From Octopus vulgaris (taxonomy: Eukaryota): a stretch of 64,000 nt of DNA. Of the stretch, positions 984 through 50,961 are shown piece by piece. The notes under the pieces are model-generated. The model had not been told where the DNA came from. It saw nothing but the letters and a program-made list of their open reading frames with translations, and searched no databases. Made by a program: the position numbers and the translations under genes. Every line of letters begins with the position of its first letter. Position 1 is the stretch's first letter. The stretch covers positions 75,950,001 through 76,014,000 of the forward strand of contig OX597826.1 in assembly GCA_951406725.2 (NCBI GenBank), given 5' to 3'.

Positions 984-1079
984 TTTTACTCTTCAACGTC
1001 TGTTTCTCAGTTGGTGGTGTCTGAGTTCTTTTGTTTCGGGAAGGTGAAGATTTGTCTCCTGTGACACCTGAGGGTACAC
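984..1079 (-). CDS. Repeat exon R8 (VPSGVTGDKSSPSRNKRTQTPPTEKQTLKSK)
   Basis: TCCCCTCAG| ... AAAA|GTAAGT, 96 nt; alternative acceptor at 1067; inside ORF 970..1173. Confidence 0.8.
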
Positions 1080-1528
1080 CTGAGGGGAGAACAAAAAAAA
1101 AAACACACAACAATTTCATATTTGACAGACATTTCTGAAAACAATGAACAACAATGAAAGACAAAAAAAACATGCAAAAGAATAAACAGAATATGAAGAA
1201 AAGGAAAGAAAATTGAAGAACAGGAAAAATGGAAGAGAATTAAAGAAATAAGAATAGAATGGTAACTGCCATGAATGTATGTTTGTGCATTTGTGTATTT
1301 ATATACAGACACATATACATTTATTTACTTGTTTCAGTCATTTGACTGCAGCCATGCTGGAGCACTGCCTTTAGTTGAACAAATCGACCCCAGGACTTGC
1401 TCTTTGTAAGCCTAGTACTTATTCTATCGGTCTCTTTTGCCAAACCGCTAAGTTACGGGGACGTAAACACACCAGCATCAGTTTTCAAGCAATGGTGTGG
1501 AGACATCACACACACACACATGCATACA

Positions 1529-1586
<58 letters not shown>

Positions 1587-2206
1587 CACAACAGGTTTCT
1601 TTCGGTTTCTGCCTACCAAATCCACTCACAAGGCTATAGCTGAAGACGCTTGCCCAAGGTGGGATTGAACCCGAAACCATGTGGTTGGGAAGCAAGCTTC
1701 TTACCACACACCCATGCTGTGCCTAGAAACAATAACACAAATGGGCTGAGGTTCACTACAGCTGTTTCAGGTGAGTTTTTTTATTGGCCCATATCATCAC
1801 CATCGTTTAACGTCCGTTTTCCATGCTAGCATGGGTTGGACAGCTCGACCGGGGATCTGGGAAGCCAGGAGGCTGCACCAGGCTCCAGTCTGATCTGGCA
1901 ATGTTTCTACAGCTGGATGCCCTTCCTAATGCCAACCACTTCAATTAAATATACAATTCTTTTTATCCTGGGTGATGACCAAGCCAGTATGATTTCTTTC
2001 TCTTTTGTGATTCATAGATTTGCTTAGCAATTTGGAATAAGGAATCAAAGCTCTTACTGACCGTTTTCCTGTCAGTAAAATCTGTTGCCAAGTTCCAGTT
2101 ACAAAGGAAGGACAAGGCAAGTGAAGGATACAGTCACTGCAGAGAAGTGTCCCCTTAAACCGCCCTCAGGTTCAATCGCAGTGCAGCATTTGATCCCCTA
2201 TGTATC

Positions 2207-2247
<41 letters not shown>

Positions 2248-2416
2248 TTATTCATGGCTGGAGGGATACATGTATATACCTACATATATAAATATATGGA
2301 TGGAGGAATGCATGTGTGTGTTTATGTGTATAGGTAGATATATATATGGCTGGAGGGATGCATGTATATATGCATATACATACATATATAATATATGAAT
2401 GGAGGAATACATGTGT

Positions 2417-2467
<51 letters not shown>

Positions 2468-5400
2468 TATATGGCTGAAGGGATGCATGTATATATGTAT
2501 ATACATACATAATATATGGATGGAGGAATGCACGTGTGTGTGTATGTATATATATATATGTCTGGAGGGATGCATGTATATATGTATATACATACATATA
2601 TAATATATGAATGGAGGAATACATGTGTGTATGTGTGTATGTATATATATATATATATATATACATACATAATATATGGATGGAGGAATGCATGTGTGTA
2701 TGTATGTATATATATATATATATCTGGAGGGATGCATGTATATATGTATATACATACATATATAATATATGGATGGAGGAATGCATGTGTGTGTGTGTGT
2801 ATATATATATATAATGTTTGTTTTTATGTTTAATCATAATAAAAACAATTGTACGTTAATCCAAGGGGGTTCCTCTCTACTCCTGTGGGGTACAAATTTA
2901 TTTTTTCTTAAACAAGAATATTACCGACAGTGACTTCGAAGTTTTGGCCAATTAAGACATCAATGGACAATGATGGCTTAACTGACTGAAACTTCAAAGT
3001 CACTGTCGGATAATATTCTCGCTTAAGAATAAGTGTGTGTGTGTGTGTGTGTGTGTGTCAAACTTACTTTTACTTCTCACTGTATGTTTCTCAGTCGATG
3101 ACGGCTGAGTTTTTTTGTGTCGTTGCGGTGAGGATTTATCTTCAGGCACATCTGAAGGGACACCTGATGGAAAAACGTTCATGCTTTATAGAGATTTCTA
3201 AAAAATAATAAACAACTACAAAGAAATATAAGAAAAAAAACAGAAGAAACAAGGAACAATAGACGGAAGAAAAAATCAAAAATCAAAAAGAAAAATGAGA
3301 AGTGGAGGGGAGGGGAGAAACAGCAGAATGAGGATAAGATAAGGGCAGAGGAACCACCATGGACAGAGCAAGGCCACCCAACCCACCTCTGTTGTGGACA
3401 ATGAAGAGATGACATCTGCAGACTGCACCACTGCATGTGAGAAAGTGCAGTGTTAATCCTCAGTTAGGTGAAGGTGCAGGATATTTTAGGAAATATAGAT
3501 ATATGGGCTACATTTATGGGTTTGTCTGGCTAAGATCATGTCTGTCCAATCAGGACTGACTGTGGGATATACAAAAACTTGAATGACCCCCTAATACAAT
3601 ATTACATCCATCCAGTTTTGCCACCCACTATTCCTGGGAGGACTGTGGGGGGTAGAGTCCTCCTCAGCCACTTCCTCCAAGGGGTCCTATCAAAAGCAAC
3701 TGTCGTTACATTTTCCAGCTGGATCCCCAACTGCATCCGTCTGAGACTATAGCCCTTATCCAACCATTTTGCTGTTGGTCCTACCTTAGGGTCTCCTGCC
3801 AGTTGGCCTGGCGTGAAGAATCTGTCTTGTGATTCTTTCCAGTGGCATTCTAATCACATGTCCAAAGGGCCAGAGCTGTAGCAGCTTGACCGGGAGAGAC
3901 TTAATGATCTCTGACCCAACACCCTGTCAAGTAATGTTACTCCAGAGATCCTTCAGAGAAACCCATATCGGCCCCTTATATTTTCAATTATATTCTTCTG
4001 GTCATTATCCAAAATCCATGGTCATAGGAGAGGACAGGCACAATACTGATTATTGAAATTAAAATCCATTTTCTTAAAATATCCTAAAACTGAACAGGGA
4101 TCAGATCTGTGCCTTTACAAATGCAGTCAATAATTGCAAAAGGTCCCCTAAAATATTTGTGCATAAACTTATCGCATTTATAAGAATAAAATGTCCTCCT
4201 TAATTAAGGATAAAGAATAATGCCCCTTCCTGAGTCATTGAGGCCTATAGGTCCTGTTTTGGGGTTGCTGGACAGGATGTCAGTCTGTCACAAGATTACT
4301 CAGTTTTGCCCACCAAGTGGACCGGAGCAATGTGGAATGAAGTGCTTTGCTCAAGAACACAACACATCGGCAGGACCCAGGAAATGAAACCACAAATTTA
4401 CCATCATGAGTCCAGCACCCTAACCCCCAAGCCATGTATCTCCACCTTCCTTTATTTGTACATAATTTAAAACCATGATTAAATAATCAAAAACAATTAT
4501 GTATACTTGTCATTAAGCAAAGAGAAGCTATTATATACATGTGTATGCCTGTGCGTGTGTGTGTGTGTGTGTGATCATCATTTAATGCCCATCCCCCAGG
4601 TTGACATGGGTTACACAGTTTGACAGCATCCAGCAAGTCACAGGGCTGTGCCAAGTCCCAGTGTTGGCTTTGGCATTGTTTCTATGGCTGGATGCCCTTT
4701 CTAATGCCAACCACATTAAAGTGTGTACTGGATGCTTTTTTTAAATGATATATATAATAATGAATAATAATAATGAAATTATTGTATACAGTGCTCAGGT
4801 GCACCACAACTTGTCAGAAAGTGCATATAAAGTACATGCAGTAATGTACAAATGTCTGGAAAGCGAACAGTGTATGAGTCAGATAGATGCTTGTGTGTGT
4901 ATGGAGGGAGAAAATCAGGTGTAGTGTTGGCGAATCTCAGAAAGCATGGAAGTTTTGAAGGATGCAGTGCTCCGACAACTAACAACTGATGCCGGCAGTT
5001 TGTTCCATGCTTCAGCAACTCTCAGTGTGAAAAAATGTTTCCTGAAGTCATGGAAGGAGCTGTGCTGTTTTCTGACTCTGTAAATATATAACTTACTTTT
5101 GCTTTTCGATGTCTGTTTAGCAGTTGGTGATGGCTGAGACATTTTGTGTTTTGAAGGTGAAGATTTATTTTCGGGCAAACCTGAAGGTACACCTGAGATA
5201 CACTTCATAGCTATTTCAGAAAATGCTGAACAACAAAAGAGAAACAAGGAAAAGAAAGAAAATCACAGGTAATACAATAAAAATAAGGTGAGGAAAGGAA
5301 TGAAAAAATAATAGTGAGAAAGAGTAGAATAAGAGGATGACTATAGATGCATGGTTTAGATAGATCAAAAGATTTGCTGGTTGCACTCATTCAGTTGGCT

Positions 5401-5600
5401 ACTTCAGGTATCATACACATCATCCCAATGAGACCTGGCCCAAAGCTGTATATCAAACCTTAATATAATTTACATTTGACAGATACTTGTCCTCATCTTG
5501 TTTGTTGTTAACACAGCATTTTGGCCGATATACCCTCCAGCCTTCATCAGGTGTCTTGAGGAAATTTCAAACCTGGCTTTTCATTCCTAAGGTATTTTTC

Positions 5601-5638
<38 letters not shown>

Positions 5639-8600
5639 TAATAATCGAACTCGGAATCTTGGGGTTAGTGACCTGAATATAATAATAACATTGAAAAAAT
5701 ACCTTAGGAATGAGAACCCAGGTTTAAAATTTCCCCAAGACACCTGATAAAGGCTGGAGGGTGTATCAGCCAATACGTTGTGTTAACAACAAACAAGATG
5801 AGGACAAATATCCGTCAAATGTAAATAATGTGAATAATGTAAATAATGTATCAATCTTCTTCTTTGCGACAAGGGAGTGTATGCAATAGAATATAGAAAT
5901 AAAATATCACAGAATTTGTTTCAGCAACTCTAGTTTTACTGTTTTCTCAATGATGTTAACACTTTTTACATCATTGATGGACACAGATACATACACAGAC
6001 ACAAATATATGTATATTTACACAAACACACAAACGCTACAGGCATCTGCCCATTATCTGTTTACCAAATTCTAACCTCAAGGTATCAATCAACCCAATCT
6101 TCATCATCATCATCAATCATTAACCTCCATTTTTCATGCTGGCATGGATCACATGGTTTAAGAGGAGGAGCTGCACCAGGTTCCATTGTCTGTTGCGACA
6201 TGGTTTCTACGGCTGGATGCCCTTCCTAACGCCAACCACTTTAAAAAGTGTACTGGGTGCATTTTATGTGGTACCAGCACAGATGCTTTTTACCAAAGGT
6301 ATCATAAAAGGCATTCAAGGTAACATGCAATGGGATTCGACTCAGAACCATGTGGTAGTGAAAAGAATTTAACAACACATTCATTCCTGCCAGAATTCCT
6401 CAACCACTTTCATGCTTCGGCCCACATCCCTGTGATTACACACCAAGTGCTTCAACCTTTAAGCTAAACTGCTCAGTAATGAATTTTTTCTGCAATTTTA
6501 GGATTTATAAATCTAGCTTCATAAGATGTTAAGGTTAAATTCAAATTACGATGAAAGTAAACGAAGAAAGTTTGCCTTAGAAGCGTTGAGATGTTTTGAA
6601 AGATTCAGAAATGATTTATCCTCAGACGCATGATGATGCTGATAGAATAGCATGAACAGGATAAACTAGCCATATATTGCAGGAACTTACTTTTAGTTTT
6701 CAATGTGGATTTAGCAATTGGTGATGGACGAAGTTTTTTGTGTCGTAAAGGTGAAGATTTGTCTTTGAGTACACCTGAGGGTACTGCTGGGGAAAAAATT
6801 TTGAATTTTATGGATATTTACAAAAATAATGAACAAAAGAAGAAAAAAAAGGAAAATAAAGTACAAAATAAAAGAAACAAACAAAAGAAAAATGTAACAA
6901 AACAAACGTAAAGAAAGACTAGAAAGAAAGAAAGAAATAAGGAGAGAATGAGAAGACTATACTGTGGGGCAACAACTGACATGCTCTGGCTAAGTCCACC
7001 TCGCTCAGGCTAAGTCCACCTCACTCATTGCCACTGCCGCTCCCACATAATCAACTTTAGGTTAAAGAATTGTAAATCTCAACTCAGTCTTTGTCCCTCC
7101 AGCACTGACAACAGCCCCGTGATTTAATCACAAGATCCCGTTCAAAGTGAGGCTGAAAGTTCCTTTATTAAACATACCTGCATAATATGCATCAAAAAAG
7201 ACTGGGAATTATTTCTGCCACCTTTCAGTAAATCTTGGTGTTTTTCGTCAAGTCTGGCTCCATTTTCTTTCGGTATTTCGTCTTATCTTCTTTCAGTTAT
7301 TCTTTACTCTCTTCATTCACTCTTCTTATTCTCACAGACTAACATTCATTATTCTTTTGTCTTCTCCATAAATTTCACCCATTTTTTTTTTAACTAAAGA
7401 TAAAAATTCTTTAATACTGAATGCTACTCTGTAACTGGTTTAAGTCATTGGATTACAACCATGTTGGGGCACTGCCTTCAAAAGGCTTCAGTTGATCATA
7501 TCAACCCACAATTGCTTTCAGTTTGGCATTTATTTTATCAATATCTATTTGTCAAATTGTTAAGTCACACTTTTTGACAAAATATCAGTGTTTTTTCTTA
7601 AGCACTGGTAAACACAGACACAAAAATACTCACACACACACAGACATATGCACAACAGGCTTCTGTACAGTTTTCACCAACCAAATTGCAATCTTAAGAT
7701 ATCGGTCATCCTGAAGCTACAGTAGAAGACACTTACCCAAGGTGCCATGCAGTGAGATTGAACTCAGAACCACATGGTTCCATAGCAATCTTGTTAACAA
7801 CAAAGTTATATACATAAAAACTTACTTTTACTTTTCAATGTATGTTTAGCAGCCAATGGTGGCTGAGGTCTTTTGTGTCGTGACGGTGGGGTTTTGTCTT
7901 TGGCTTCACCTGAGAGTACAAAAAAAAAAGAAACATGGGTGTTTTATAGATAAAGCTGAAAATATTAACAACAAAGAAGTAAAAAGAAGCAATGGAAATA
8001 AAGCAAGAAGAAAAATGAAAAATAGAGGGAAAACGAAGAAAGAAAAGAACAAAGGAACAGCAACTGCTACACAGTGTCCAAGTCCACCTCAACTGAGGCC
8101 ATCATATGACTCAATAGATTTTCAGAAACATTGGATAGCAGAGAGATTGCAATACTTGCTATGGTAAAAGAGCAATGCCATGGAATTGTTTCAGTCATTA
8201 GACTGTGGCCATGCTGGGGCACCACCACTGCATGTCAGGATGTGCAGCATTGGACCACAGCCAGCTGGAGGAATGCTATATGTAGGTCATAGCTGCATGC
8301 TTGGGCACCATATAGGCCCTGCTAAACCAGGACTGACAAAAGGTTAACCTCCACCAGTATTTGTATATTTTAATGATTTTATTCAAATTAAAATACATGC
8401 TGGTACAACCAAAGAAAAAAGTACCCAGTCCACTCTGTAAAGTGGTTGGCATTAGGAAGGGCATCCTACTGTAAAAACCATGCCAAAACAGACAGTGGAG
8501 CATGGCCCTGTCCTCTGGCTTACCAGTTCCTGTCAAACACTGTCCAATCCATGCCATCACGGAAGACAAATGCTAAATGATGATGGAATAGGAAACATAA

Positions 8601-8874
8601 TTGAAGTTCAAATACTACAATAACAGTTATACAATTTCGGAGATGTACTCACATAGCAAGTGACTTGATCTGAGATCGTGTGCTGAAACGAAAACAATTG
8701 CAGCGTGGAAGGTGTTTATAAGCCATTTAAGAAACACACAAAAGCCGTTCGATTCACGTCAACATTTAAGTTTAATTTGTCAAAATATTTTCCTCGCTTT
8801 AAGACCGTGACCTGTTCACTGACAAAAATCCGAGATGCATCTACAATTGTTTAGGTTATAAGCCCCCACTACAT

Positions 8875-8942
<68 letters not shown>

Positions 8943-11900
8943 CTTAAATATAGCCATGAAACACGTGTCGTTATTCTACCAAATATATACGTTTTTATTA
9001 TTATTTTGCAATTTACTTAATCATCGGTATATCATTGTTATTTTATTTTTAATATTTCTATTATATGTAATTTTTTAGATGGTGTAATTTAATTGTTCAT
9101 TTTGAATTGATAAAAGGTGGGTTTTTTTCTAATTTTTATATATATATTATATTTTGTGAAATTTGATTTAGTATTTCTAAATTGAATTTTTCCCTGTAAG
9201 TTAGAAATAATATTCCTCTAAAATAATTATTATATATATATATATATTACGGAGATGTACTCGCATAGCAAGTGATTTGATCTGAGATTGTGTGCTGAAA
9301 CAAAAACAATTGCAGCATGGAAGGTGTTTGTAAGCCATTTAAGGAACACACAAAAGCCGTTCGATTCACTTCAACAATTAAGTTTAATTTGTCAAAATAT
9401 TTTCGTCGCTAAAATCCGCAACCTGTTCACTGACAAAAATCCGTGCTGCATCTGATATATATATATATATTACAGAGATATTTAAAACTATTCACCATGG
9501 AATTCATTACAATATTTGTTGTAAATGCTTAAAGCTGACAGTAAAACAGTCACGGGCACTATTAACAATAAGTGAGTAGGGAAGAGCACAAGGCCATCAG
9601 GGATAGTCACTAAGATACTTAAAATATCTCTCAAAGTAGGTCATGTGCTAGTTGGTCTCTCAGTTAATCAGGCAGCACAGACAGCTGTCACACCCAATGA
9701 TTTGCACACCTGTATCATTAGGTACAACAACAATATGACAATAGCAAAGGAGAAGAACTAAAGAGAGGTCACCACTGAAGCACCAAAATGATTGGTGAGA
9801 TTGTGAAAGTCAGTGTGTTTATAGCACAAGGGGTTAGGAACAGAATTAACTGGGAAGGGATGCTGAGGCCAGTGTCAAAGGGAGACAACTGCGGATAGGA
9901 TCTTTTACTTGTTTCAGTCATTTGACTGTGGCCATGCTGGAGCACCGCCTTTAGTCGAGCAAATACACCCCCAGGACATTCTTTGTAAGCCGAGTACTTA
10001 TTCTATTGGTTTCTTCTGTTGAAAGCTAAGTTACAGGGATGTAAACATACCAGCATCGGTTGTCAAGCGATGTTGGTGGGGGGTAAAAACACAGACACAC
10101 ATATATATATACAATGTCTTCTTTCAGTTTCCGTTTACCAAATCCACTCACAAGGCTTTGGTCAGCCTGAGGCTATAGTAGAAGACACTTGCCCAAGGTG
10201 CCACGCAGTGGGACTGAACCCGGAACCATGTGGTCAGTAAGCAAGCTACTTACCACACAGCCACTCCTATATTTAGTATAAAGCCTTTGTGTCAAGTATG
10301 TGACAACCTAGAGAAGGCATTTGCTAAGATCCCACGTTCTGCAGTCTGACAGTGAATTAGGAAACAAAAGGTAGATGAATGACTCATTAGAGCCACTCAA
10401 GCCATGCACAAAAGTACAATCAGCTACGTGAAGAGTTAGCAGTGAATTCAGCAGAAAATTTAGCATGCAGTTAATGATCTGTTCTTAGTCATCTACAGGG
10501 GGTTTTTTTTTTTTCTTTTTTGGTTTCCCATACCAGAAGAGTCCAAGACTAGCATTTAATGAAAAATGCCATGTTCTGAGGATTGGTTCTTACAGCTGAA
10601 AATGTAAGAGAGTTAGGCAATTCCAGGCATGAGAGCAAAACCTACAATTCAGGAGACCTCAAAACAAACTTAACAAAAACTAAAGTTTTAGTAAAAATAA
10701 GAAAGAACGCAGCACCCTGCTTGTATCAGGAAAATTACATTGATTGATCTATAGGAAGAAAAGAAAGACAAGTAGAAATTCCAGTGTACCCAGAATAAAC
10801 TATGGGTGAACAAGTGACGTTATAGAAAGCTCACCAGCAGACTGGCAGAGAAGGTAGGCCTTAAAACTGTGGCAGATGGAGATTATTGTAAGAATTAACC
10901 CTTTCGTTACTGCATTTCTGTTGAGATCCTCTCTGTTTCTTTCAATTACTTTAAATATAACAAAGAATTTAGTAAAATAACTTAGTTATCATTCAGCTAG
11001 TGTTAGGAACATAAATTGTGACTAAAGTTTGGTGGAAGATTTTAATTCAAAACTTATGAAAATAAGACATTTATATACAGAGCCGGTTTCAGCCGGGTTG
11101 GTAACGAAAGGGTTAATGTAAAACCAATTCTGTTAAATACTTGGAAGACTCCCTTGAAGTAGTTGAAAGCCTTCGCTACTTAGATTACCGAATTAACAGT
11201 GAAGATGGAGGCTTCAAGAGCACTGTAACTGAAGCAAGAAATTGCAGGAAAAGTTCCAGGAGTTACCATTTCTGTTGGTAACAAACTGCTTTTCTCTTCC
11301 ATGGTAAATGACAGATAACAATGTTTGTGTGAAAAGAGCAACGCTGCATAATAAGAAGGGTATGGACTTGCTTCAGTCATTAGACTGTGGCCATGCTGGG
11401 GCACCATCTTGAAGAATTTTAATCAAATGAATCAATGCCAGGACTTTTGGCTTTTTGCATTGAAGCCTGGTACTTATTCTATCAGTCTCTTATACTGAAC
11501 CACTAAGTTATAAAGATGTAAACACACCAACACCAGCTGTCAAGCAGTGGTAGGAAACACTCAAAGAAAAACACACACATTAAATATAACCCATGGAAAG
11601 CGGACGCTAAACGATGATGATGATATAGTTACGTATATATATGTATATATATATTTATTTACCTATGTATATATGTGTGAATGTATATATATATATATAA
11701 ACAGTTTTCTTTCAGCTTCTGTCTACCAAATCCACTTACAAGGTTTTGGTCAGCCCAAGGTTATAGTAGAAGACATTTGCTCGAAGTACCATGCAGTGGG
11801 ACTGAACCTGGAACTTCTAACCACACAGCCACGCTTATGCTTTAATCATTTTACCTCACTAATCCTCTCCCCAATTCACTGTACCACATGGGTCATGGCA

Positions 11901-14900
11901 GATGGTATTCCATTCCACCACCACCCTGTAGCACTGCATCTCTATTCCATCACAACCATCTGTGTAATGAGAGAAGACATGAGAAGCATTTCAATTCAAC
12001 AACGCCCTACCAATACCACTCTTTGCTCCTGGGTATCACCCTCCTCACCATCACCCTTAGTGGTGGCATCCGTCCCTTTCTTTCATAATTATCTGTCATT
12101 ATTGTTATCCTGCAATCCTCCTCCCTCCTTCTCTCCCCCTCACACACACACACACACACACACGCATACATGTCACTTACTTTTATTCCTCAAGGTCTGT
12201 TTCTCAGGTGATGTTGTCGGAGGTTTTTTGTACCGAGAAGGTGAGGATTTGTCTTGCGGTACACCTGAGAGAACAAAAGAATTTCATAATTTACAGGTAA
12301 TTCTGAACAACAACAACTTCAAAGGAAACCGGAAGAAAAACAGAAGGAAGAAACAAAAGAATGGAAAGTAAAAAAATAGAAAAAGAGTTAAATCTCTTTA
12401 CAAACACCAACCAATGGTATGGTCACTCAGAAAAAAAAAAAATCTATGTAGTGCTTTTAACATTCCAGTGAAACGATAAGGAAAATGGTCATCTGTGGAT
12501 GGTACCCAGTTATTGGAGCAGTACCTAGGTACCACACATAACCACACATCCGTTGACCAGGGTCTAAAGGGTTGTTTTAAGATTCTCATAATGCATCAAC
12601 ATCATCGTCACTTTCCCATGTTTGCATGCGTTGGATGGAGTTTATTGAGAGATATTTTCTACAGCTTTATGCCCTTTTGTCAGTGACAAGGGTGGGAAGT
12701 AAAGTAAAGGGACCTTCTCAAGTTATGCTGAGTCATAAGGACCAGTTTCCTGGTTCCCATGGTGTATAAATTCCCCTCTTGGATAGGACGCCAGTCCATC
12801 GCAGAGTTACTCATTTTTGCCATTTGAGTGGACTGGAGCAGTGTGAAATGAAGTGTTTTGATCAAGGACACAGTGCGTTACCTGGTCCAGGAATTGAAAC
12901 CACAATCTTACAATCATGAGCCCAACACCCCAACCACTAAACCATGTACCTTCACGAGGAGTGGGAGGAGTAAGGGAATAGATAAAGCCGGAATGATGAT
13001 AGAGTAAAACTTTAAATGTGGTGAGCTGGCAGAGATGTTAGCATGCCAGGCGAAATGCTTAGTGGTATATCATCTGCCGCTACATTCTGAGTTCAAATTC
13101 TGCCGAGGTCAACCTGGCCTTTCGTCCTTTCGGGGTCCATAAATTAAGTACCAGTTATGCACTGGAGTCGATATAATCAACTTAATCCGTTCATCTGTCC
13201 TTGTTTGTCCTCTCTGTGTTTAGCCCCTTGTGGGTAGTAAAGAAATAGGTATTTCGTCTATCTTTACGTTATGAGTTCAAATTTCATTGAGGTCATCTTT
13301 GCCTTTCATCCTTTCTGGGTCGATAAATTAAGTACCAGTTACGCACTGGGTCAATCTAATTGACTGGGACCCCTGTCCAAAAATTTCAGGCCTTGTGCCT
13401 GAAGTAGAAAAGAATAAATGCCATTACCGAGGCGGTGAGCTGGCAGAAACGTTAGCACGCTGAGCAAAATGCTTATTGGTATTTCGTCTGTCTTTACTTT
13501 CTGAGTTCAAATTCCACCAAAGTCGACTTTGCCTTTCATCCTTTTGGGGTTTATAAATTATCAGTTGTGTACTGGGGTCAATCTAATCGACTTCTCCCCC
13601 ACCTCCCCCAAAATTTTGGGCCTTGGAGTAAAACTTGATGACTATATGTGTATTTGTTAACCTACTTTCTCTTTTGTAGTTCAATGTATGTTTAGCAGTT
13701 GGTGATGGTTGAGGTTTCTTCCGTTTTAAAGGTGAGGACTTTTCTTGGGGTACACCTGAAGGAAAAGAATAATAAATCTAAAGATATTTCGGGAGATAAG
13801 GAACAACAACCAAAGATAAAGGGGAAAAGGATGGAAAAGAGAGAAAAAAGAAAGGAAAATAGAAGAAAAGAGGAAGAATAGAAAGGAAAGAAAAATAATT
13901 TAAATGAATTTTCTTTTTTTCAACATGCAGAGAATAAAAGAAGAATGGCAAAATAAAATAAGAAGAAAAAAGAAGATAAAATGGTAAAACTGGTTGTTTG
14001 ACAAATTTTTTCCTGTTTTTGAAAATTTATCAGAAACATCAAAAGTTGCAGGATTATTTAGATATGATGAGATCCACACTTGCATCATCATCATGAAAGG
14101 GAGGAGGAAGATGGGAGGGAGAAGAGGAAGGTGGAGGGGTACAGTAGAAGGCTAAGGAAGGAAAAGTGAAGAGAAGGGAGAAAGGTAGAGGTAGAATGAA
14201 GAGAAGACGAATGAGAAGAGGAAGGGGATATGCAGAGGAGAAAGAGGAAGAAGATGTGTGGGGAGGAGGAACTCACTTTTACTTTTCAATGTCTGTTTAG
14301 CAGTTGGTGATGGCTGAGGTTTTTTGTGTCGTAAAGGTGATGACTTGTCTTTGGGTACATCTGAAGGTACATCTGAAGAAAAGAAAAAAAATTTCAGATT
14401 TTACAGGTATTTCCGAAAAAAAAATGAACAACGCTTATAGGCGCAGGAGTGGTTGTGTGGTAAGTAGCCAGTCGAGGCGGCGATGGCAGTGTTTGATTTA
14501 TTTAAACAGGTAAGATGACAAACCTTTATTTTTTTCTGCAGATCTGCCACCACTTTCTGGTTTCTTTACAATCTTCGTAGACTTTTTGAAAGTCTTTTCA
14601 TTCTCTTCAATAAGAGACAAGTTGGTATCAAATACATCAAAGTAGCGTGTCTGGACTGTTGGTTTATGAACCCCAAATGCAGAAATCATTTTTCTGGGCG
14701 ACTCTTTAATTTTCTCTGGACTAGCGCTGAAGCTGTCAGGAAAAAAAAAAAAAAAAGGGAAAATTCCAAATACAAATTAATAAGATCTGATAGCTTCACA
14801 ACAGACAAAGTATATCACTAACCAAGTTGTGATCTCTGTGCATCCATGTGTGTGTATTACAGAATGGACTAAACAGAACAAGATACACATGGGATGGAGA

Positions 14901-15811
14901 GTCACCAAAGAGGTCACAGGACGTGATGAAAGCTTTCAGAAAAGACACTAAAATAGGAACAATAATAAAACTGAAGTGAACACTAAGTATATACTGCAGG
15001 TGGTTAACAGACAAAAACAATATGACCATTCCCAAATATCATCATCATCATCATCGCTTAACGTCCGTTTTCCATGCTAGCATGGGTTGGATGGTTCGAC
15101 CAAGGTCTGGGAAGCCAGGTGGCTACACCAGGCTCCAGTCTGATCTGGCAATGCTTCTACAGCTGAATGCCCTTCTTAACGCCAACCATTCCGTGAGTGT
15201 AGTGGGTGCTTTTTATGTGCCACCGGCACAGGGGCCAGGCCAGGCTGGCAATGGCCACGATCGGTTAGTGCAACCATATATATATACACACACACACATA
15301 TGTAAAGTACAGTGACACATTATGGTTAACCTAGAGATACAAAAGAGATAAGAGACAACAAAAAGATAATAGAAGGAAAGAACAAAAGAAGAAATTGCGG
15401 AAGTTACCTTTCTGACACTGTCATCTTCCTCTTTTTTCTGGTTGATACAGCTTCTGGCAAAACCTGTGGAGAATATATAAGATGACATCGTAGAATATGG
15501 AATATAATTATTCACTTTTATATATATGTATATATATATATATATGCATACAGGGTGGCCCCAAATGTGGGTTTGCAGTTATCATGTAGGCACTTTAAAT
15601 TTCTTTTAAAACATTTTATTACATTTAAATTTCTATCTTTCAATTAACTAAATTAGCATAGAATAATGGTTTCATATTTTTTTTATAATTGAGATCTAAA
15701 CTGTTGATATATGAATGCGAAAGAGAGAGTTGAAGAATTGGAAATCTACTTTTGGGCCATACATGGCCTTGCTTTTTGCTTTTTGAGCCCCAAAATTAAC
15801 TAACTAACATA

Positions 15812-15842
<31 letters not shown>

Positions 15843-18800
15843 ATATATATGAGTTGATGCCAGTAGTGCCTGACTGGCTCCCATCCCAGTGCCATGTAAA
15901 AGGCATCATTCAATCTTGACCAATGCCAGTGGCACATAAAAAGCACCACCCAAGCATGGTCGACGTTAGTGCCGTCTGACTGGCTCCTGTGCCAGTGACA
16001 CGTAAAAAGCACCCACTACACTCTCGGAGTGGTTGGTGTTAGGAAGGGAAAAGCTGTAGAAACCTTGCCAGATCAGATTAGAGCATGGTGTAGCCTACTG
16101 GCTCACCAGTCCTCAGTCAAACCGTCCAACCCATGCCAGCAGGGAAAACGGATGTTAAACGATGATGATGATGATGATAAGTTTTCATCTTTAAAACCTT
16201 AAATACAAAACCTAAAGAAATATTGACCATCAGGGCACGTAAAAAGCACCATCCGATCGTGGCCGTTTGCCAGCCTCGTCTGGCACGTAAAAAGCACCCA
16301 CAACACTCATGGAGAGGTTGGCGTTAGGAAGGGCATCCAGCTGTAGAAGCCTTGCCAGATCAGACTGGAGCCTGGTGCAGCCTCCTGGCTTCCCAGACCC
16401 CAGTTGAACCGTCCAACCCATGCTAGCATGGAAAGCGGATGCTAAACGAAGATGATGATGAATTCAACGATTCTGTCAGGAAAAGATGCAGCACCAGTAA
16501 CATTCAGTAGCACTCCTAAAAAATTCACACACACACACAGTACATACATACATGCTTAAGTGAGCACGCATACATCCATCAATGCAGACTAGTTCTTTTT
16601 TGATCGAATGTGTTTGTTGTTTAAAAAATGAGATTGGATCTGTCCAAGGTTGATCTTCATTACTCACACACACAGAAATATGTGTGTGTGTGTGTGTATC
16701 ATCATCGTCATTTAACGTCCACCTTCCATGCTGGCATGGGTGGGAGATATATATATATATATATATATATATTCTTTAATTCTTTTATTTGTTTCAGTCA
16801 TTTGACTGTGGCCATGCTGAAGCATCACCTTTAGTCGAACAAACTGACCCCAGGACTTATTCTTTGTAAGCCTAGTACTTATTCTATCAGTGTCTTTTAC
16901 CGAACCACTAAGTCACAAAGATATAAACACATTATCAGTTGCCAAGTGATGTTGGGGGGGACAAACAGAGACACACACACACATATACAACGGGCTTCTT
17001 TCAGTTTCCGTCTGCTAAATCCACTCACAAGGCTTTTGTTGGCTCAAGGCTATAGTAGAAGACAGTTGCCCAAGGTGCCTTGAAGTGGGACTGAACTGGA
17101 ATCATGATTGGTAAGCAAGCTACTTACCGTACAGCCACTCTTGCACCTATATATATATATATATATACCTTTGAAATGTTTTGAGGAAGGTTTACATAAT
17201 GGATGCATTTCCTAATATGACATAATGAAATTACAGTGTATAGTGCTCAGGTGCACTACAACTCATCAAAGGTGTATGTATAGTACATAGAATTATGCAC
17301 AAAAGTCAGGAAAGTGAACAGTGTATGAGTCATGACATACGTGTGTGCATGCATATGGAGCAGGGGGATATCAGGTGTAGCATTGGCGAATTTCAGGAAA
17401 CAGGGAGGTTTTAAAGGATTACTTTTTTTTACAGACTCCGATGACTCTGAAGTAGAAATTGTGAACCACACTGACAATGTTGTAAGTATCTTTTCAATTA
17501 TTTCATTCAAATTCTTCCCATGAGACCTTTGGTGATTTGCCACACTTGAGAAGACCTCTCAAGTTGAGCGAAATCTTAGTCATGGCCAATGCCAGTGTTG
17601 CATAACTGGAACGTTGGGCAATATGCTATGCTTGAGAAGACCCCGCCAAGCCAAGTGAAATGCATTCTGCCTGGTGTGCTAACGGTTCTGCTAGTTCACC
17701 ACTGCCTTAATCCCAAATTATGTTAATAAAATTTACTTACATCTTCATTTTTTATATTGTCATTTTCTAGATCATCCTCATTTTCTTCATCATCTTCATT
17801 TTCTGGAAAACAAGATCAAAAGTAGAAATAATACATTTCTAAATCTCTCAGAGAGATTTATACAGTAGTAACATGATAAAGTGGTTGTATGTTATCAACT
17901 TAATGTGAGTCCCATGAAAGGGAATAATACTACTGCTATTTAGCCCTAGGAAGCAGCACTGCTTCCTGTCGACATTGACACATTTCCTGTGTCCTATTTT
18001 CGAAATCAGTGAATGTATTACACTTGAATTATTATATGTTTAAGGGGGCAGACAGGCATCAACAGCTAGTAAGCAATGCTACTCCAGACTGATGACAAGC
18101 AATGACTCAGAAACTAGTCTCTGGACGCTGGCTTTGCTGGGTGGAGGTGCTTATCTCCACCTTTGTAAACATAAGGACATGCCTACCTCGGTTACTATGG
18201 CATTGAGGTAGATTGGGCCACCCCCTTTGGCAGGGACAAAACCCGATTTAAAACACTTGATGATGATGATGATATATATACTGGTTAGGGATATGAAATC
18301 TGGCAGAATCTGTGAGACTGAACCCAAGACAACATAGTTGGGAAGCAAGCTTCTTAACCACCTACAGATCCATGACTTGGGGGGGGGTGATGTTGGCTAA
18401 GGAGGAGGAAGTCACCAACAGAACAGAAGTTGCTGAATTCATTCATGTAGTCACTGAGAAAGAAAGAAAAAATGAAAGAAACAATTTGGGAGAAAGAAAG
18501 AAAGTGAATGAGGGAGAGAGAAATGAGTGAAAGTGAACGAGTGAGTGAGAGAATGAGCAGGAAATACAATACCTTGACATTCCTTTGAACTTGAAAGACT
18601 CGTGTTGCCTCCATTCTTGACGGTTGTCTCTGGTTCTTCAGCTGATGGATCACAGACATTTGTGGAGAGAGATTCCTTTGCGGGGGACGAAGCAGCCTTT
18701 TGGACAAAAGATTCCTCATCTTCAGGAAAAGATTTCATACCTCGCTTACTGATGATTCTGACATTGCTGTTAGAATTAGAGGCTGCCGAAGACACTTCAG

Positions 18801-21800
18801 GTGTCTTTGCAGTGGTCACCTCCTTCTCTGAGACTATCACTTCTTGATGGTCACCGTCTTCAGAGTCAGCAGCACTAGTGTCGGCTAATGACTTCATTCC
18901 ACGTTTACTGATGACTCTTTGCACATATGAAACCCTTCAATACAAAACGAAAGCATTATTAATGAACTGTTTTCTGTATTTATTTTATTTATAGAACCGA
19001 GCGTGGCCGTTTGCCAGCCTCGTCTGGCACCTGTGTCGGTGGCACATAAAATGCACCCACTACACTCTCGGAGTGGTTGGCGTTAGGAAGGGCATTCCAG
19101 CCGTAGAAACACTGCCAGATCTGACTGGACTGGTGCAGCTTTCGGGCTCCCAGACCCCGGTTGAACCGTCCAACCCATGCTAGCATGGAAAGCGGACGTT
19201 AAATGATGATGATGATGACAGGCATTGTGTAATTGAGAAGGTTTATTAAAACAAAAAAGAAAAAAAACTCATCCCACTTTATAATGTGTCAGAATGTTCT
19301 GTGTTTTGAATAGGATGGGGGATGTGATTTGTGTATTTTTCTATTTGGTTATTAAACGAGAGCCTTTATTTGCAGATTATCCCTGTTGAAAGGCTTCTGA
19401 TAGTAAGTGTTTCATCATCATCACACACACACTACACATACAGTATGCACATTTAACACACTAATTTGGTCCGTGCAACATCTATATTCCTCCTGCCCCT
19501 GCTGCAAGGCTTTATTTCCAGTCTTTGAAAATTGGGTTTTCTGGGCTAGCATGGAGGGTTCGACAGGGATCTGGGAAGCCAGGAGACTGCACCAGGCTCC
19601 AGTCTGATCTGGTAGTGTTTCTACAGCTGGATGCCCTTCCTAACGCCAACCATTCCCTGAGTGCAGTGGGTGCTTTTTACGTGCCACCAGCACAGATGCC
19701 AGGGGAGGCTGGCAGCAGCCACGATCGGTTGGTGCTTTTTATGTGCCACCAGCATATGTATCACAACTACAATTTCCAATGATATTTATTTTGATGTACT
19801 TGACTCAATAGGTCTCCTCAAGCACAGCAGGTCATTCGGAGTTTTCTTTCCTCAGTCGAGTTCCAGATTATCTTTGCAATTTCTGCTGGTTATACTTGAG
19901 ATTGCTCTAATCTGGCCAGCCCCAAGGAAAAACTAAGCTAAGAACACTAGATTCCTTGGAAGCAACGAATGTCTATGGAAACAAGGACAGAATAAAACAG
20001 AGAAATGGTACACAAATACAAATAACAGGACATTAACAATGAGTGTCTTTCAACTAAGGACAAATTAAATTAAGCTGGCGTGCGTGTGTGGAAGTAAAGC
20101 CTTACGGCAGGGACAGGGAGGAATATAGATGTTGCACGGATGGTAGTCGAACCAAATTAGTGTGTGCTTTATGTGCATATGTATGTGTGTGTGTGTGTAT
20201 GCATACACATACAATATATTCTCTTTTATCCAAGAACTTAAAAATAAGAAGAAACACTTACTCTTCAGAAGCGTTTGAACAAGAATCTGTCATTGACTCA
20301 ACAGGAAATGATAATCTGCAAATAAAAGGCTCTCGTTTAATAACCAAATAGAAAAATACACCTCAAAATACACCCCACATCCCCCAGTCCTATAGAAATA
20401 TATCCCTCAAAACACAGAACATTCTGACACATTATAAAGTGGGATGAGTTTTTTTCTTTTTTGTTTTAATAAACCTTCTCAATTACACAATGCCTGTACG
20501 ACATTTTACAACTCTCCCTCTCCATCCCCCACTCCATATCAACATCCTCTCCTTCATTTTAAGGCTTTGTCTTTCATCCTCACCATCATCGTTTAACGTC
20601 CGCTTTCCATGCTAGCATGGGTTGGACGGTTTTGACTGAGGGCTGGCGAACCAGATGGCTGCACCAGGCTCCAATCTTGATCTGGCAGAGTTTCTACAGC
20701 TGGATGCCCTTCCTGACGCCAACCACTCCGAGAGTGTAGTGTGTGGTTTTTACGTGCCACCAGCACGAGGGCCAGTCAGGCGGTACTGGCAACGACCTCG
20801 CTCGAATCTTTTTACACATGCCACTGGCACAGGTGCCAGTAAGGCGACGCTGGTAACGATCACGCTCGAATGGTGCTTTTTATGTGCCACTGACACGGAA
20901 GCCAGTTAGCCGCTCTGGCAACGATCATGCTCAGATGGTGCTCTTGGCACCCTACTGGCATGGGCACATGTGCCAGTAAGGTGACGCTGGTAACGATCAC
21001 ACTCGAATGGTGCCTTTTATGTGCCAATTTTCTATAACATAATATATATCTTATAATTCTTGAATAGCTTGACCCCCAATTCTACCCCTAAAATACTCTT
21101 CTTGCTACAGTCTTTAATAAACAACCCAGAAATTAGGACAAAACATCGAAGTAAATCACCAACATCATCAGCATTTAACATCCTTTTTCCCCATGCTGAC
21201 CTGGTTTGGATGGTTTAACAGGAACCAACAAGCCAGATGACTGTGCCTAGCTCCTACTTTGTCCTGGTCTCTATGGCTGGGTGCCCTTCATAAGACTAAT
21301 CACTTTACAAAGTGTACTGAGTGCTTTTTTCATGACACAAGCACAAGTGATGTTTCGCAAATACCTAAAAGACAAGATCCCTTCAACCAAAAGGGAAATG
21401 GTATCGAAAGAAATGAAATTATGATAGAGGGACAGAAACAGGCCTTACTCAATATCATTTGTTTCTAACATAAGCACATGCCCTGAAATTTCATGGAGGG
21501 ATTTTATGATAATAGAATTTATTTTTAAGCTTACCTTTTCCTGGAAGGGAAATTTGAGAGAGAAAGAGGGGACACACTACTCTTGGCATCATCATCTGCT
21601 GCAGGTTTTACAGCCACTATTTTCTGAAATAAACAAAAATATTAATATCTAAATAAATAATTCACATAATAGATATTCTTTTCTACTGTAGGCACAAGGC
21701 CTAAAATTTTAGGGGAGGGGGCCAATCGATTAGATCGACCCCAATAGGCAACTGGTACTTAATTTATTGACCCTAAAAGGATGAAAGGTAACATCAACCT

Positions 21801-24800
21801 TGGCAGAATTTGAACACAGAACATATAGATAGATGAAATACCTATTTCTTTACTACCCACAAGGGGCTAGACACAAAGACAAACAAGGACAGACAAACGG
21901 ATTAAGTCGATTATATCGACTCCAGTGCGTAACTAGTACTTATTTAATCAACTCCGAAAGGATAAAAGGCAAAGTCGACCTTGGCGGAATTTGAACTCAG
22001 AACATAACGGCAGACGAAATACGGCTACGCATTTCGCCCACGTGCTAACGTTTCTGCCAGCTCGCCACCTTATCAACATAATAGATATTAATATAATAAT
22101 CCTGTTGCAATTTTTTGTTTTTTTATGACTTGACCATAGGAAGAAAAGAGAACATCTGTGACCCCTTCTAACCTGATGAGAGAAGAAGAAGAAATTATGC
22201 TCAGAGGAAATTCTGTTAAAAGTACTCAAGGATCAGGTGGTGATGGGCAACAGATTAAGTTAATCACAAAAGAGCAGGTCCTGCCTGTACCATGGACTTC
22301 CACAGTTTGCCTGCCACTCACATGAGGCAATCATGTAGCAAGGGTTCTAAGTGATTGCGGTGGAAGGTTGGCAAAGAAAATTCTGGTACCTCCACCATAA
22401 CTACTAAAAGCCATGATGAACCGTTTTCTCTCACAAGCCTTTAGTACGTCTGGAGCCATAGTAGAGGGTATTTACCTGAGGTTCCACATAGTGGGGACTG
22501 AACCCAAAACCATATGGTTGGGAAGCAAGCTTCACCACACAGCAACATGGGAAAATATCATCATCCTCATTTAATGTCCATTTTCAATGCTGGCATGGTT
22601 TGAATATTATCATCATCATCGTTTAACGTCCGTTTTCCGCGCTAGCATGGGTTGGACGGTTCGACCGGGGTCTGGGAAGCCAGGGGCTGCACCAGGCTCC
22701 AGTCTTATCTGGCAGTGTTTCTACAGCTTGATGCCCTTCCTAATGCCAACCACTCCGCGAGTGTAGTGGGTGCTTTTTACGTGCCACCTGCACAGGTGCC
22801 AGGGGGGGTCCAGCATCGGCCACGATCGGTTGGAGCTTTTAACGTGCCACCGGCACAGAAGCCAGCCAAGGCGGTGCTGGCAACGGCCACTGAAAACTAG
22901 TAAGCTGGGAGCTGCACCAGGTTCCAATCTGATTTGGCCTGGTTTCTACGGCTGGATGCCCTTCCTAATGCCAACCACTCCAAGAGTGTAGTAAGTGCTT
23001 CTACGTGTCACTGGCACGGGTGCCAGTTATGTGACACTGGCATTGGCCATGGCTATGATTTCCCTCAGCTTGAGAGGTCTTCCCAAGCGTGGCACATCAC
23101 CAAAGGTCTCATGGGAAGAATTTGAATGGAAAAATTGAAAAGATACTTACAACATTGTCAGCGTGGTTCACAATTTCTACATCAGAGTCATCGGAGTCTG
23201 TAAAAAAGTAACAAAATAACTTATAAATCAATTAACCTTTACATGGTTATGTTCTTAATGAAGCAGACTACCTGTGTTAGGAAAAGCTGTGGTAAGAAAC
23301 TCGCTTCACAGCCACATGGTTCCAGGTTCAGTCCTACTGCAGGGCACTTTGGCCAAGTGTCTTCTACTATAACCCTGGGTCGACCAAAGCCTTCTGAGTG
23401 GATTTGGTGGAAAAAAAAAACTGAAAGAAACCCGTCATGTGTGTGTGTGTTTGTCCTTCACTACTGCTTGACAGCCAGTGTTGGTGTGTTTACATCCCTG
23501 TAACTAAGTGGTTCAGCAAAAGAGATGGATACAATAAGTATCAAAAATAAATAACTAGTGGGGTCGATTCACTCGACTAAAGATTCTTCAAGGCAGTACT
23601 CCAGCATGGCCACATTCTAATGACTGAAACAAGTTAAAGATACTATAATCAAAACCTCGCAGGTTTTCGTAAAATATCTGAAACTGAATAGATTAGGTTT
23701 TGTTGTTGTTAAGCATTAAGGTCTGATAGAGCAGACCTATGGCCGAAAGCAGTCCAATCATGACCATCAAGAGGTATGCAGGATTATCTGCTTTGTCTTT
23801 TCTTTTACAAAAACAGCAGTTATTGGTGAGGGAAGGGGAGTGTCAGCTAAGGTATTGTTTAGCCCCCATATATACGACAGGCTTCTTTCAGTTTTCGTCT
23901 ACCAAATCCACTCACAAGGCATTGGTCGGCCCGGGGCTATAGTAGAAGACACTTGCCCAAGATGCCACGCAGTGGGACTGAACCCGGAACCATGTGGTTG
24001 GTAAGCAAGCTACTTACCACACAGCCACTCCTGCGCCTATGAGTTTTTGCTTGCTGAGTTTTTTTTTTTCTCTTTTAAAACAATTAGATGTGGTTTGAAA
24101 GAGATTTGGCTGCTATTTCTAGCAGATTGCATGATCATTTAGAAGATGTTTCTGTGTCTCATGTAGACATACAAGAGGAGGAAATAATTAAAAGAATATA
24201 ATTGGATGTGTTTCTCGTTACCAGTTTCTGTAAAATAGTCATCGAAATTTTCAAATCCGTCTTCATCAATTCGAATACGTTTCCCTTCCAAAATACCCTT
24301 TCCTAGGTTTCTGAAAACAACAAAAATAATTCATTTTAACAACACTCAATTAGCAATAATTACAAATATAGTTAATTGTTAATTAATTTTTATGATATAA
24401 ACATTTTAGTTCCATTTTCCTTTTTCCTCTCTGATATCCATTCCACCTGCGCAAGCATGAAGAAATCATCATCATCATCATTTAACGTCCGCTTTCCATG
24501 CTAGCATGGGTTGGACGGTTCAACTGGGGTCTGGCAGGCCCGAAGGCTGCACCAGGCCAGTCAGATCTGGCAGTGTTTCTACAGCTGGATGCCCTTCCTA
24601 ACGCCAACCACTCCGAGAGTGTAGTGGGTGATTTTATGTGCCATCGACACAGGTGCCAGACGAGGCTGGCAGACGGCCACGCTCGGATGGTGTTTTCTTA
24701 TGTATCACCGACACAGGTGCCAGACGAGGCTGGCGAACGGCCACGCTCGGATGGTGTTTGTTACGTGCCCTCAGCACGGAGGCCAGTCGATGCGGTACTG

Positions 24801-47566: not shown

Positions 47567-47748
47567 TTAGAAATTTTCTGAAAACCCTTGTTTATTAAGC
47601 CTTCCAGTTTTAGCATCGTTAATTGCTCCCCAGAGATCAAAGATGAAATCATCAGCAAATCCAAAAGCTTCGAGGTCCGATGCATCTACGGCCATGGCGA
47701 AGTCATGCGGATTCTCTTGTTTGTTTCCAATCTCCCAGATGTTTTGAG
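47567..47748 (-). CDS. GIPC1: GIPC family last coding exon, GH2 domain (AQNIWEIGNKQENPHDFAMAVDASDLEAFGFADDFIFDLWGAINDAKTGRLNKQGFSENF*)
   Basis: TCTTTTTCAG| phase 1 matches the upstream exon; matches the GIPC C-terminus F-x-F-x-D-x-F-x-FD-x-WGAI-x-DAK-x-GR; TAA at 47567-47569. Upstream exons (GH1, PDZ) were not found up to 64000. Confidence 0.92.
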
Positions 47749-47799
47749 CTGAAAAAGACAGATTGCAATTTAATATATATATGATATAAATATATAATC

Positions 47800-48855
47800 T
47801 TTTATACTCTAGGCACAAGGCCCGAAATTTTGAGGGAGGGGTGGGGGGCAGTCAATTAGATCAACCCAAGTACGCAACTGGTGCTTAATTTATCGACCCC
47901 GAAAGAATGAAAGGCAAAGTTGACCTCGGCGGAATTTGAACTTAGAATGTAAAGACAGATGAAATACCTATTTCTTTACTACCCACAAGGGGTTACACAC
48001 AGAGAGGACAAACAAAGACAGACAAACGGATTAAGTCGATTACATCGACCCAGTGCATAACTGGTACTTAATTTATCAACTCAAAAAGGATGAAAGGCAA
48101 AGTTGACCTCGGTGGAATTTGAACTCAGAACGTAACGGCAGATGAAATATCTATTTCTTTACTACCCACAAAGGGCTAAACACAGAGAGGACAAACAAGG
48201 ACAGACAAACGGATTAAGTCGATTACAACGACCCCAGTGCGTAACTGGTACTTAATTTATCGACCCCAAAAGGATGAAAGGCAAAGTTGACCTCGGTGGA
48301 ATTTGAACTCAGAATGTAAAGACAGACGAAATACCGATTTCTTTACTACCCACAAGGAGTTAAACACAGAGAAGACAAACAAGGACAGACAAACGGATTA
48401 AGTCGATTATATCGACCCCAGTGCGTAACTGGTACTTATTTAATTGACCCCGAAAGGATGAAAGGCAAAGTTGACCTCAGTGGAATTTGAACTCAGAATG
48501 TAAAGACACGAAATACCACTAATCATTTCGCCCAGCATACTAACTTTTCTGTCACATATGATGTACATAATGTATTCTTTTCTCCTCTAGGCACAAGGCC
48601 CAAAATTTTGGGAGTGGGGGCCAGTCAATTTGATCAACCCTAGTATGCAACTGGTACTTAATTTATCGACCCCGAAAGGATGAAAGGCAAAGTTGACCTC
48701 AGTGGAATTTGAACTCAGAATGTAAAGACAGACGAAATACCACTAAGCATTTCGCCCAGCATGCTAACTTTTCTGCCATCTCTCTGCCTTTCGGTAGCTA
48801 TAAATTTTTTTCTACTCTAGGCAACAGGCCCGAAATTTTGGGGCTGGGGCCAGTA
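47800..48855 (-). mobile_element. Tandem multimer of family B SINE units in the last GIPC intron
   Basis: Unit of about 180 bp (GGATGAAAGGCAAAGTTGACCTC..GGAATTTGAACTCAGAA..CTTTACTACCCACAAG) repeated head to tail about 4 times, plus a further partial copy. Confidence 0.88.
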
Positions 48856-50388: not shown

Positions 50389-50634
50389 TAGGGTGTTCAA
50401 AAAGTCCTTTCACAGTGAATTTTTTTCATCCTGACTCTCCAAGATTTATTTCAAAACATGTGTAGAAGAGTCAACTTAAGTATTGAAAATGAAGGGCAGC
50501 ACCTTCAGCACCTCTTATAAAGTTTTATAAATTCTTGTAAAGTCTAATATATTCTTTTGTAGTCTTTTACCATCTTATAAATATTTTATTTTGCAATAAA
50601 ATACTAACTGCAGAGAGACTTTTTGAACACCCTG
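50389..50634. mobile_element. Tc1/mariner-type MITE
   Basis: TA|TAGGGTGTTCAAAAAGTC ... GACTTTTTGAACACCCTG|TA. Confidence 0.85.
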
Positions 50635-50961
50635 TATAATTCTTCTTAATTTTAAAACAGGGCCAGCAATTTTTGGAGAGCAGAGGGAAGTTGACTACAT
50701 TGACCCCAGTTGGAATTTGAACTCAGAACCTAAAGAGTTGGGACAAATGCAACTAAGTTACTTGTCTGGTATTCTAGCAATCCTACCTACCAACCCACAA
50801 CCCTTAAGAAAATATGGAATGGTTTCTGCCCAAATTTGCATGTGTTCCTTGTGCAGAGATCATGCCAGTGTTTTCTTTATCTTTCTAATTTTAGCGTATG
50901 CGCGGTCAAGCTGCAGCAACGATAACAACAAAGCGAAAACATTAACAACAACAATATTTAC

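Follow-up and report, generated by a model that had tools for sequence, protein, structure and literature searches.

Within a 64,000-nucleotide stretch of the Octopus vulgaris genome (assembly GCA_951406725.2, contig OX597826.1, positions 75,950,001 to 76,014,000 of the forward strand), hereafter the window, lies an array of eight homologous small exons that belong to a gene identified by its encoded protein as CENP-C. The exons, first described in an earlier note made from the letters of the window, all run on the minus strand, measure 96, 90, 84, 84, 96, 96, 96 and 96 nt, and in each copy are bordered by AG and GT, have phase 1-1 and contain zero stops. The motif K-S-S-P-x-[RK] is present in 7 of the 8 copies, exon 4 carrying K-T-P-P. 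The exons are listed below in the order of translation, with their use in public gene models:

14277..14372, minus strand: repeat exon 1, 96 nt, or 84 nt from an internal acceptor at 14360; in 17/17 O. vulgaris models
13666..13755, minus strand: repeat exon 2, 90 nt; skipped in 5/17 O. vulgaris models
12181..12264, minus strand: repeat exon 3, 84 nt, with two full CDK consensus sites; in 17/17 models
7826..7909, minus strand: repeat exon 4, 84 nt, K-T-P-P and no S-S-P; in 17/17 models
6691..6786, minus strand: repeat exon 5, 96 nt, or 93 nt by a tandem acceptor; skipped in 4/17 O. vulgaris and 2/8 O. sinensis models
5097..5225, minus strand: repeat exon 6, 96 nt from 5192 or 129 nt from 5225; skipped in 8/17 O. 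vulgaris models, 3/8 O. sinensis models and one O. bimaculoides entry
3068..3163, minus strand: repeat exon 7, 96 nt; skipped in 6/17 O. vulgaris models
984..1079, minus strand: repeat exon 8, 96 nt, the final copy; in 17/17 models

Exon sizes vary, as public models also use the 84-nt exon 1, the 93-nt exon 5 and the 129-nt exon 6, the last in every O. vulgaris model that has exon 6. In model P0023 the repeats span residues 334–589 (256 residues).

Origin, turnover and skipping of the repeat exons

A single symmetric exon of octopus CENP-C gave rise to all eight by tandem duplication, which bears out the exon-by-exon duplication proposed in the earlier note. The upstream 120 nt of intron are alike in 17 of 28 repeat-exon pairs (z > 3), far above the 1/28 obtained for eight non-repeat exons of the same gene, whereas the downstream flanks of the repeat exons are alike in just 1 of 28 pairs. 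The duplicated genomic unit comprised an acceptor plus its exon. Copying of one ancestral motif accounts for the seven S-S-P occurrences, which should not be counted as independent events. In a tree of the repeat exons, 3 and 8 form the sole supported grouping (84%). The array had been suspected to continue past the window edge, but the last copy ends at 984: an nhmmer search that took in 20 unrelated loci besides the window and the 100 kb downstream of it recovered the 8 copies (E 4e-35 or better) and no ninth, the remaining matches being two fragments with E of about 5, and all 8 candidates of a genome search were the known array copies.

Variable repeat number was observed in public gene models of three Octopus species, on the evidence of concordant annotations rather than of reads. 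The 17 O. vulgaris models contain 10 inclusion patterns with 5–8 repeats; exons 1, 3, 4 and 8 are constant and exons 2, 5, 6 and 7 are skipped in some models. Eight O. sinensis models (of at least 10) show 4 inclusion patterns, with exons 5 and 6 skipped, and two O. bimaculoides entries differ by exon 6, the exon skipped in all three species.

Synonymous divergence among the eight copies is ~0.55, and a paralogue dN/dS of 0.52 (bootstrap 0.29–0.93; 28 pairs, non-independent) indicates moderate coding constraint. Five columns are invariant in the eight copies: Lys-2, Pro+1, Lys+5, Lys+14 and Thr+16. Among the O. vulgaris paralogues, K-S-S-P is the best conserved four-column window (0.875 vs 0.49), a peak that does not exceed chance by column shuffling (p = 0.12). 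By the terms of the earlier note, the Polo reading would fall if S-S-P were no better conserved than its neighbours across species, and that is what was observed: in orthologous exons of O. vulgaris and O. bimaculoides, the S-S-P columns change at 3/18 positions and the others at 24/157 (Fisher p = 1.0; small sample). S-S-P is kept in 7/8 copies in O. vulgaris and 3/8 in O. bimaculoides, and a full CDK site in 7/8 and 5/8 copies, respectively. In orthologous pairs the phospho-acceptor Ser is unchanged in 6/6 and the full CDK site in 5/6, so conservation is stronger for the CDK site than for the Polo core. The full O. bimaculoides model also has eight copies, although these form a different set: exon 1 is absent, and one copy between exons 5 and 6 lacks an O. 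vulgaris counterpart.

Octopus CENP-C and its orthologues

The assignment to the CENP-C family, already made in the earlier note, was confirmed by a cupin match (PF11699, 41.3 bits, E 2e-10, Pfam cut-off 29), and on these sequence comparisons the array gene is Octopus vulgaris CENP-C. A coleoid CENP-C profile searched against the PDB gave 3 matches, the cupins of Cnp3, CENP-C and Mif2 (best E 0.0014), hhalign matched coleoid CENP-C to three other CENP-Cs at 95%, and an upstream exon is 100% identical to O. vulgaris proteins named “Mif2/CENP-C cupin domain-containing” in UniRef. A genome search with PF11699 returned 3 weak matches, none over the cut-off, the best of them being the array locus (E 5.2). 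Model P0023 comprises 21 coding exons: nine upstream of the array, eight repeats and four past the window edge. The other features of the gene and its neighbour are:

26707..26735, minus strand: first coding exon, ATG at 26735; the start in 16/17 models
24222..24310, minus strand: exon with the N-terminal D-G-F-E-N-F-D-D-Y-F block, kept in cuttlefish
20262..23197, minus strand: three small exons (23197-23151, 21623-21535, 20315-20262)
18573..18934, minus strand: 362-nt exon with two I-S-K-R-G-M-[KQ]-S-[LF] copies, both kept in cuttlefish
14524..17802, minus strand: three pre-array exons (17802-17741, acidic; 15463-15408; 14732-14524)
G000:C13 ~75949231 down to 75940795, minus strand: four coding exons after the array, outside the window (one 87-nt exon and three cupin exons)
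47663..51043, minus strand: upstream neighbour GIPC, two exons

The exon with the D-G-F-E-N-F-D-D-Y-F block may encode the Mis12-complex-binding end of the protein, as the block resembles the N-termini of Mif2 and Cnp3; the Pfam N-terminal CENP-C models gave no match in the octopus protein at E up to 1, and an atlas search with the CENP-C N-terminus gave no usable match. A K-R-L-S-F motif, similar to cyclin- or PP1-docking motifs, spans the 21535/20315 junction, and exon 14732-14524 holds G-V-H and T-N-L-x-x-I-[DE]-E blocks. All of these elements are common to octopus and cuttlefish, together with the two I-S-K-R-G-M-[KQ]-S copies and the cupin. The I-S-K-R-G-M-[KQ]-S-[LF] pair is conserved within diverged surroundings and is a candidate binding motif; complex prediction of these motifs (residues 100–178) with octopus H2A and H2B scored 0.01, which speaks neither for nor against binding. 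A whole-protein structure prediction from a 7-row alignment had a mean pLDDT of 31.7, with the cupin below 50 too, values too low to inform on the fold.

O. sinensis, O. bimaculoides and a cuttlefish each have a CENP-C orthologue. The homologue searches yielded three Octopus species, one cuttlefish lineage, two limpets, a starfish fragment and one further protein, and no CENP-C homologue from squid, Nautilus or other octopod genera turned up in them. Public CENP-C models are misnamed or blank (unc-89, dao-5, GIPC, hypothetical). The GIPC label on the cuttlefish models in GenBank is owing to fusion with the neighbour gene; GIPC lies upstream on the same strand in octopus as well, so that octopus and cuttlefish share the GIPC/CENP-C neighbourhood. 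All O. sinensis models examined end early at a frameshift in repeat exon 7 (P0010, P0012, P0014, P0017, P0018, P0020, P0021, P0025), and the newer O. bimaculoides model (P0011) terminates right before the array; faulty assembly or annotation may account for the frameshift and the short model and conceal the cupin. Elsewhere in the window, a 120-residue open frame at 54026-54385 on the plus strand resembles, by eye, a retroelement reverse-transcriptase fragment.

The eight-exon array is absent from the cuttlefish CENP-C, where the repeat profile matches best, though weakly (E 0.053), at one K-S-S-P-G-K segment just past the shared upstream block. This segment may be a faint sign of a single ancestral exon. 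The cuttlefish linker is no less basic than that of octopus and includes a 251-residue block with 67 Lys/Arg, 17 Asp/Glu, 4 CDK sites and 1 S-S-P. The cuttlefish models (P0030, P0042-P0045) further contain Cys4 zinc-finger-like units of the form W-x-C-x2-C-x10-C-x2-C, 0, 1 or 2 by model, which we take to be RanBP2-like.

The missing CENP-C motif and a candidate CENP-A

The earlier note suggested looking for a CENP-C motif downstream of the array, and none was recognisable in octopus CENP-C in protein, PDB and frame searches. Trp is absent after the start in 16/17 O. vulgaris models, and the 17th has two, both in an N-terminal extension. The octopus protein matched no PDB motif peptide at E up to 10, whereas the control P0032 matched three (E 1e-4 to 3e-3); in three proteins the canonical motif scored no better than in shuffled sequence, and in the three sense frames of the gene nothing came close to the score of the control. 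The PDB and shuffle comparisons found no canonical motif in cuttlefish CENP-C either. A Y-W-R in another frame of the post-array exon was rejected: its frame would have to be entered in phase 2, which does not fit the phase-1 end of the repeats, and the O. bimaculoides protein appears to imply Cys in place of Tyr. The missing motif lowers the case for a canonical CENP-C, not for orthology, and the motif may be too diverged for these tests, the I-S-K-R-G-M pair being one candidate. In a limpet (Patella; P0031, P0041), CENP-C keeps the Arg-rich half of the motif and lacks Tyr-Trp, which suggests that motif decay may predate coleoids within molluscs or may have happened repeatedly.

Genome searches with the canonical-motif query and for CENP-N and CENP-U found nothing and had no positive control, so that absence is not shown; the search for CENP-I gave a weak match (28.5 bits, one stop). 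A SANTA match marks a likely KNL2/M18BP1 gene at G000:C7:17988395-18032900, one exon of which carries a ~55-residue basic tandem duplicate with S-P-K-K. A simple pattern scan of 80 kb around this gene found no CENP-C-like motif.

The search for a CENP-A partner led to the following gene:

G000:C17:45445604-45442888, minus strand: likely CENP-A, a two-exon H3 variant of 141 aa (L040, L011)

CenH3 proteins are recognised by a divergent N-tail, 50–60% identity to H3, changes at Gln68, Phe84 and Thr107, and a longer loop 1. The variant is single copy (of 38 genome matches one stands at 100% and the runner-up at 62%), has a diverged N-tail and a short C-terminal tail, and carries Met, Trp and Ser at Gln68, Phe84 and Thr107; apart from loop 1 it fits the hallmarks. 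It aligns to H3 without gaps across the fold, and because its loop 1 is of H3 length we call it just a likely CENP-A. Searches against the PDB returned ordinary H3 first and an atlas search returned generic histone clusters. Its N-tail begins K-S-S-P-R, the same motif as in the CENP-C repeats. In the available part of a mollusc histone survey that includes O. vulgaris and O. sinensis, none of the 16 CENP-A entries has a prefix readable as octopus, squid or cuttlefish (PMC12210499); this is weak evidence against the label, since most other species there are also without a CENP-A entry. Taken together, the gene probably encodes CENP-A, as judged by its sequence.

Function of the array

We favour, at about even confidence, the interpretation that the array is a basic disordered linker which binds DNA or RNA, whose length is set by exon skipping and whose grip is weakened by CDK phosphorylation. 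The earlier note had offered phospho-regulated DNA/RNA binding as an alternative; we rank it first, the basic composition and the CDK sites being observed and binding being our inference from them. The 256 residues hold 61 Lys/Arg against 17 Asp/Glu and 8 full CDK consensus sites. All 16 copies of O. vulgaris and O. bimaculoides have 5–8 Lys/Arg per 26 residues, the net charge ranges from ~+25 to +44 depending on isoform (5–8 repeats, annotated skipping), and in the protein the array follows the conserved N-terminal half and precedes the cupin. The repeat-free cuttlefish linker, with its 251-residue block of similar composition, fits this reading. Judged by composition, position and analogy, the repeats would bind DNA or RNA, skipping would set the binding segment at 5–8 repeats, and CDK phosphorylation would loosen its hold on nucleic acid. 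Phosphorylation of such basic motifs is expected to weaken their binding. CENP-C family cupins dimerise, and a cupin dimer would present 10–16 repeats. Because the canonical nucleosome-binding motif is missing, the array may take a larger share in centromere anchoring.

This CDK-regulated nucleic-acid-binding linker is the best reading because the precedent nearest to the array, in grass CENP-C, is a block of duplicated exons that binds DNA/RNA. Grass CENP-C exons 9–12 have been repeatedly duplicated and lost, with basic exons of 30–38 residues (PMC549713), and in maize the removal of these exons abolishes DNA binding and lowers centromere targeting (PMC2816676). The central region of human CENP-C binds DNA (PMC549713), and kinetochore proteins contain SPKK-type minor-groove motifs (PMC5095916). 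Several points weigh against the linker reading. The function is read from composition, position and analogy, and the grass exons are an analogy for which no homology is claimed. Basic Ser/Thr-Pro-rich disorder is widespread among octopus centromere proteins, two exons of the likely KNL2 gene holding 4 and 6 CDK sites, with 77 and 70 Lys/Arg in 357 and 329 residues. The upper bound of dN/dS (0.93) is near neutral, and the gene models behind the annotated skipping can record splicing noise.

An alternative reading is a tolerated, near-neutral spacer, in which duplication and skipping are frame-neutral, selection acts on length, charge and disorder, and the isoforms are mostly splicing noise. 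Copies turn over within the genus, as the extra O. bimaculoides copy illustrates, orthologous copies diverge at ~16% of residues without sparing any motif, and the cuttlefish linker is filled by other optional modules, the Cys4 units. However, open frame and GT/AG persist in all eight copies despite their synonymous divergence, dN/dS is below 1 with five invariant columns, four exons appear in every O. vulgaris model and the same exon 6 is skipped in three species, and we consider a mere spacer unlikely. A similarly low likelihood attaches to the proposal of the earlier note that CDK priming makes the array a multivalent platform on which Plk1 docks through its Polo-box domain. Its sequence premise stands, as an S-S-P core lies within the CDK consensus in 7 of 8 O. 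vulgaris copies; paralogues retain the Ser preceding the acceptor although its codon varies synonymously (third-position identity 0.32), the cuttlefish has its one weakly matching K-S-S-P-G-K segment at the corresponding position, and C. elegans CENP-C binds PLK-1 via a CDK1-primed S-T163-P (PMC10156168). The acceptor, the upstream residues and the conservation across species speak against it. Polo-box docking prefers pThr, and strong sites add hydrophobic contacts (PMC13161223), but Thr is the acceptor in 0/7 octopus sites, all being Ser, and positions -4 to -2 are Lys, Gln, Glu, Gly, Asp or Asn, none of them hydrophobic. S-S-P is kept in just 3 of 8 O. bimaculoides copies and changes between species about as often as other columns, the paralogue peak at K-S-S-P is matched by 12% of column shuffles, human CENP-C does not require the lone S-S-P of its PEST region to bind PLK1 (PMC12301651), and the C. 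elegans site lies in the N-terminal 214 residues, outside the central linker.

A very unlikely alternative derives the repeats from a CENP-C-motif exon, amplified without its aromatic residues, with Arg still docking on nucleosomes. Phase 1-1 is shared by the motif exon of mouse, chicken, Arabidopsis and rice, which measures 105–108 bp and in mouse and chicken begins x-L-P-S-N-[ST]-P (PMC549713), to be compared with x-V-P-S at the start of the octopus exons; exon 8, the top-scoring site for the canonical motif within the octopus protein, reads R-N-K-R-x-x-x-x-P-x-E against chicken R-T-K-R-x-x-x-x-P-x-E. The exon 8 score of 17, however, is matched by 27 of 100 shuffles, the repeat profile compared with three motif-bearing proteins reached E 0.61 over one column, among the CENP-C chains of the PDB neither exon 8 nor the profile found a match with E up to 10, and the best cuttlefish match of the profile is far from the cupin. 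Descent from decayed motif exons was thus left unsupported by the shuffle scores, the PDB searches and the profile comparisons.

Comparison with known CENP-C systems

Combining the linker reading with the missing motif gives a broader and rather doubtful scenario, in which coleoids would have a CENP-A centromere and a CENP-C without the nucleosome-reading motif, the octopus replacement being a splice-tunable, CDK-switched basic array that anchors the kinetochore to centromeric DNA or RNA. The CENP-C motif has been called universal in insects, and its decay in dragonflies, the one published case of such decay that we found, goes with CenH3 loss and served as independent confirmation of it (PMC4359364). 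If the scenario is true, an animal with CENP-A and without the motif breaks the inference from motif decay to CenH3 loss and offers a natural test of DNA/RNA binding standing in for nucleosome reading. The array itself brings the grass exon-duplication pattern to an animal, as eight frame-neutral units that can be removed singly. Its components are already known: exon duplication from grass CENP-C, CDK/Polo sites from worm CENP-C and motif decay from dragonflies. In a literature search that left subscription journals mostly uncovered, we found no publication on cephalopod CENP-C and no earlier report of eight cassette exons, no motif and a likely CENP-A together in an animal.

The cuttlefish orthologue (Sepia/Acanthosepion pharaonis CAE1231122-32; Logan P0030, P0034-P0040) shares with octopus the N-terminal blocks, the cupin, the GIPC neighbour, a basic Ser-Pro-rich linker, the lack of a canonical motif and the presence of optional modules, but has 0–2 Cys4 units and one weak K-S-S-P segment in place of the eight-exon array. 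The dragonfly CenpC-like protein likewise has a cupin and a decayed CENP-C motif (PMC4359364); dragonflies, however, have lost CenH3 and are holocentric, whereas octopus holds a single-copy likely CENP-A. C. elegans HCP-4/CENP-C also places S-[ST]-P in a CDK consensus within a CENP-C (PMC10156168), there as one N-terminal Thr site with binding shown and in octopus as seven Ser sites of the central linker, poorly kept between Octopus species. Grass CENP-C is alike in that small basic exons (~30 residues) are duplicated and lost in a poorly conserved middle region, with copy number varying between close species. In grasses, however, the CENP-C motif is retained and what has been duplicated, two or three times, is a pair of exons, one acidic and one basic; in octopus the units are single exons, eight in number, which carry CDK sites and are skipped in models, and no motif can be recognised. 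Nucleic-acid binding was shown in maize and is inferred in octopus.

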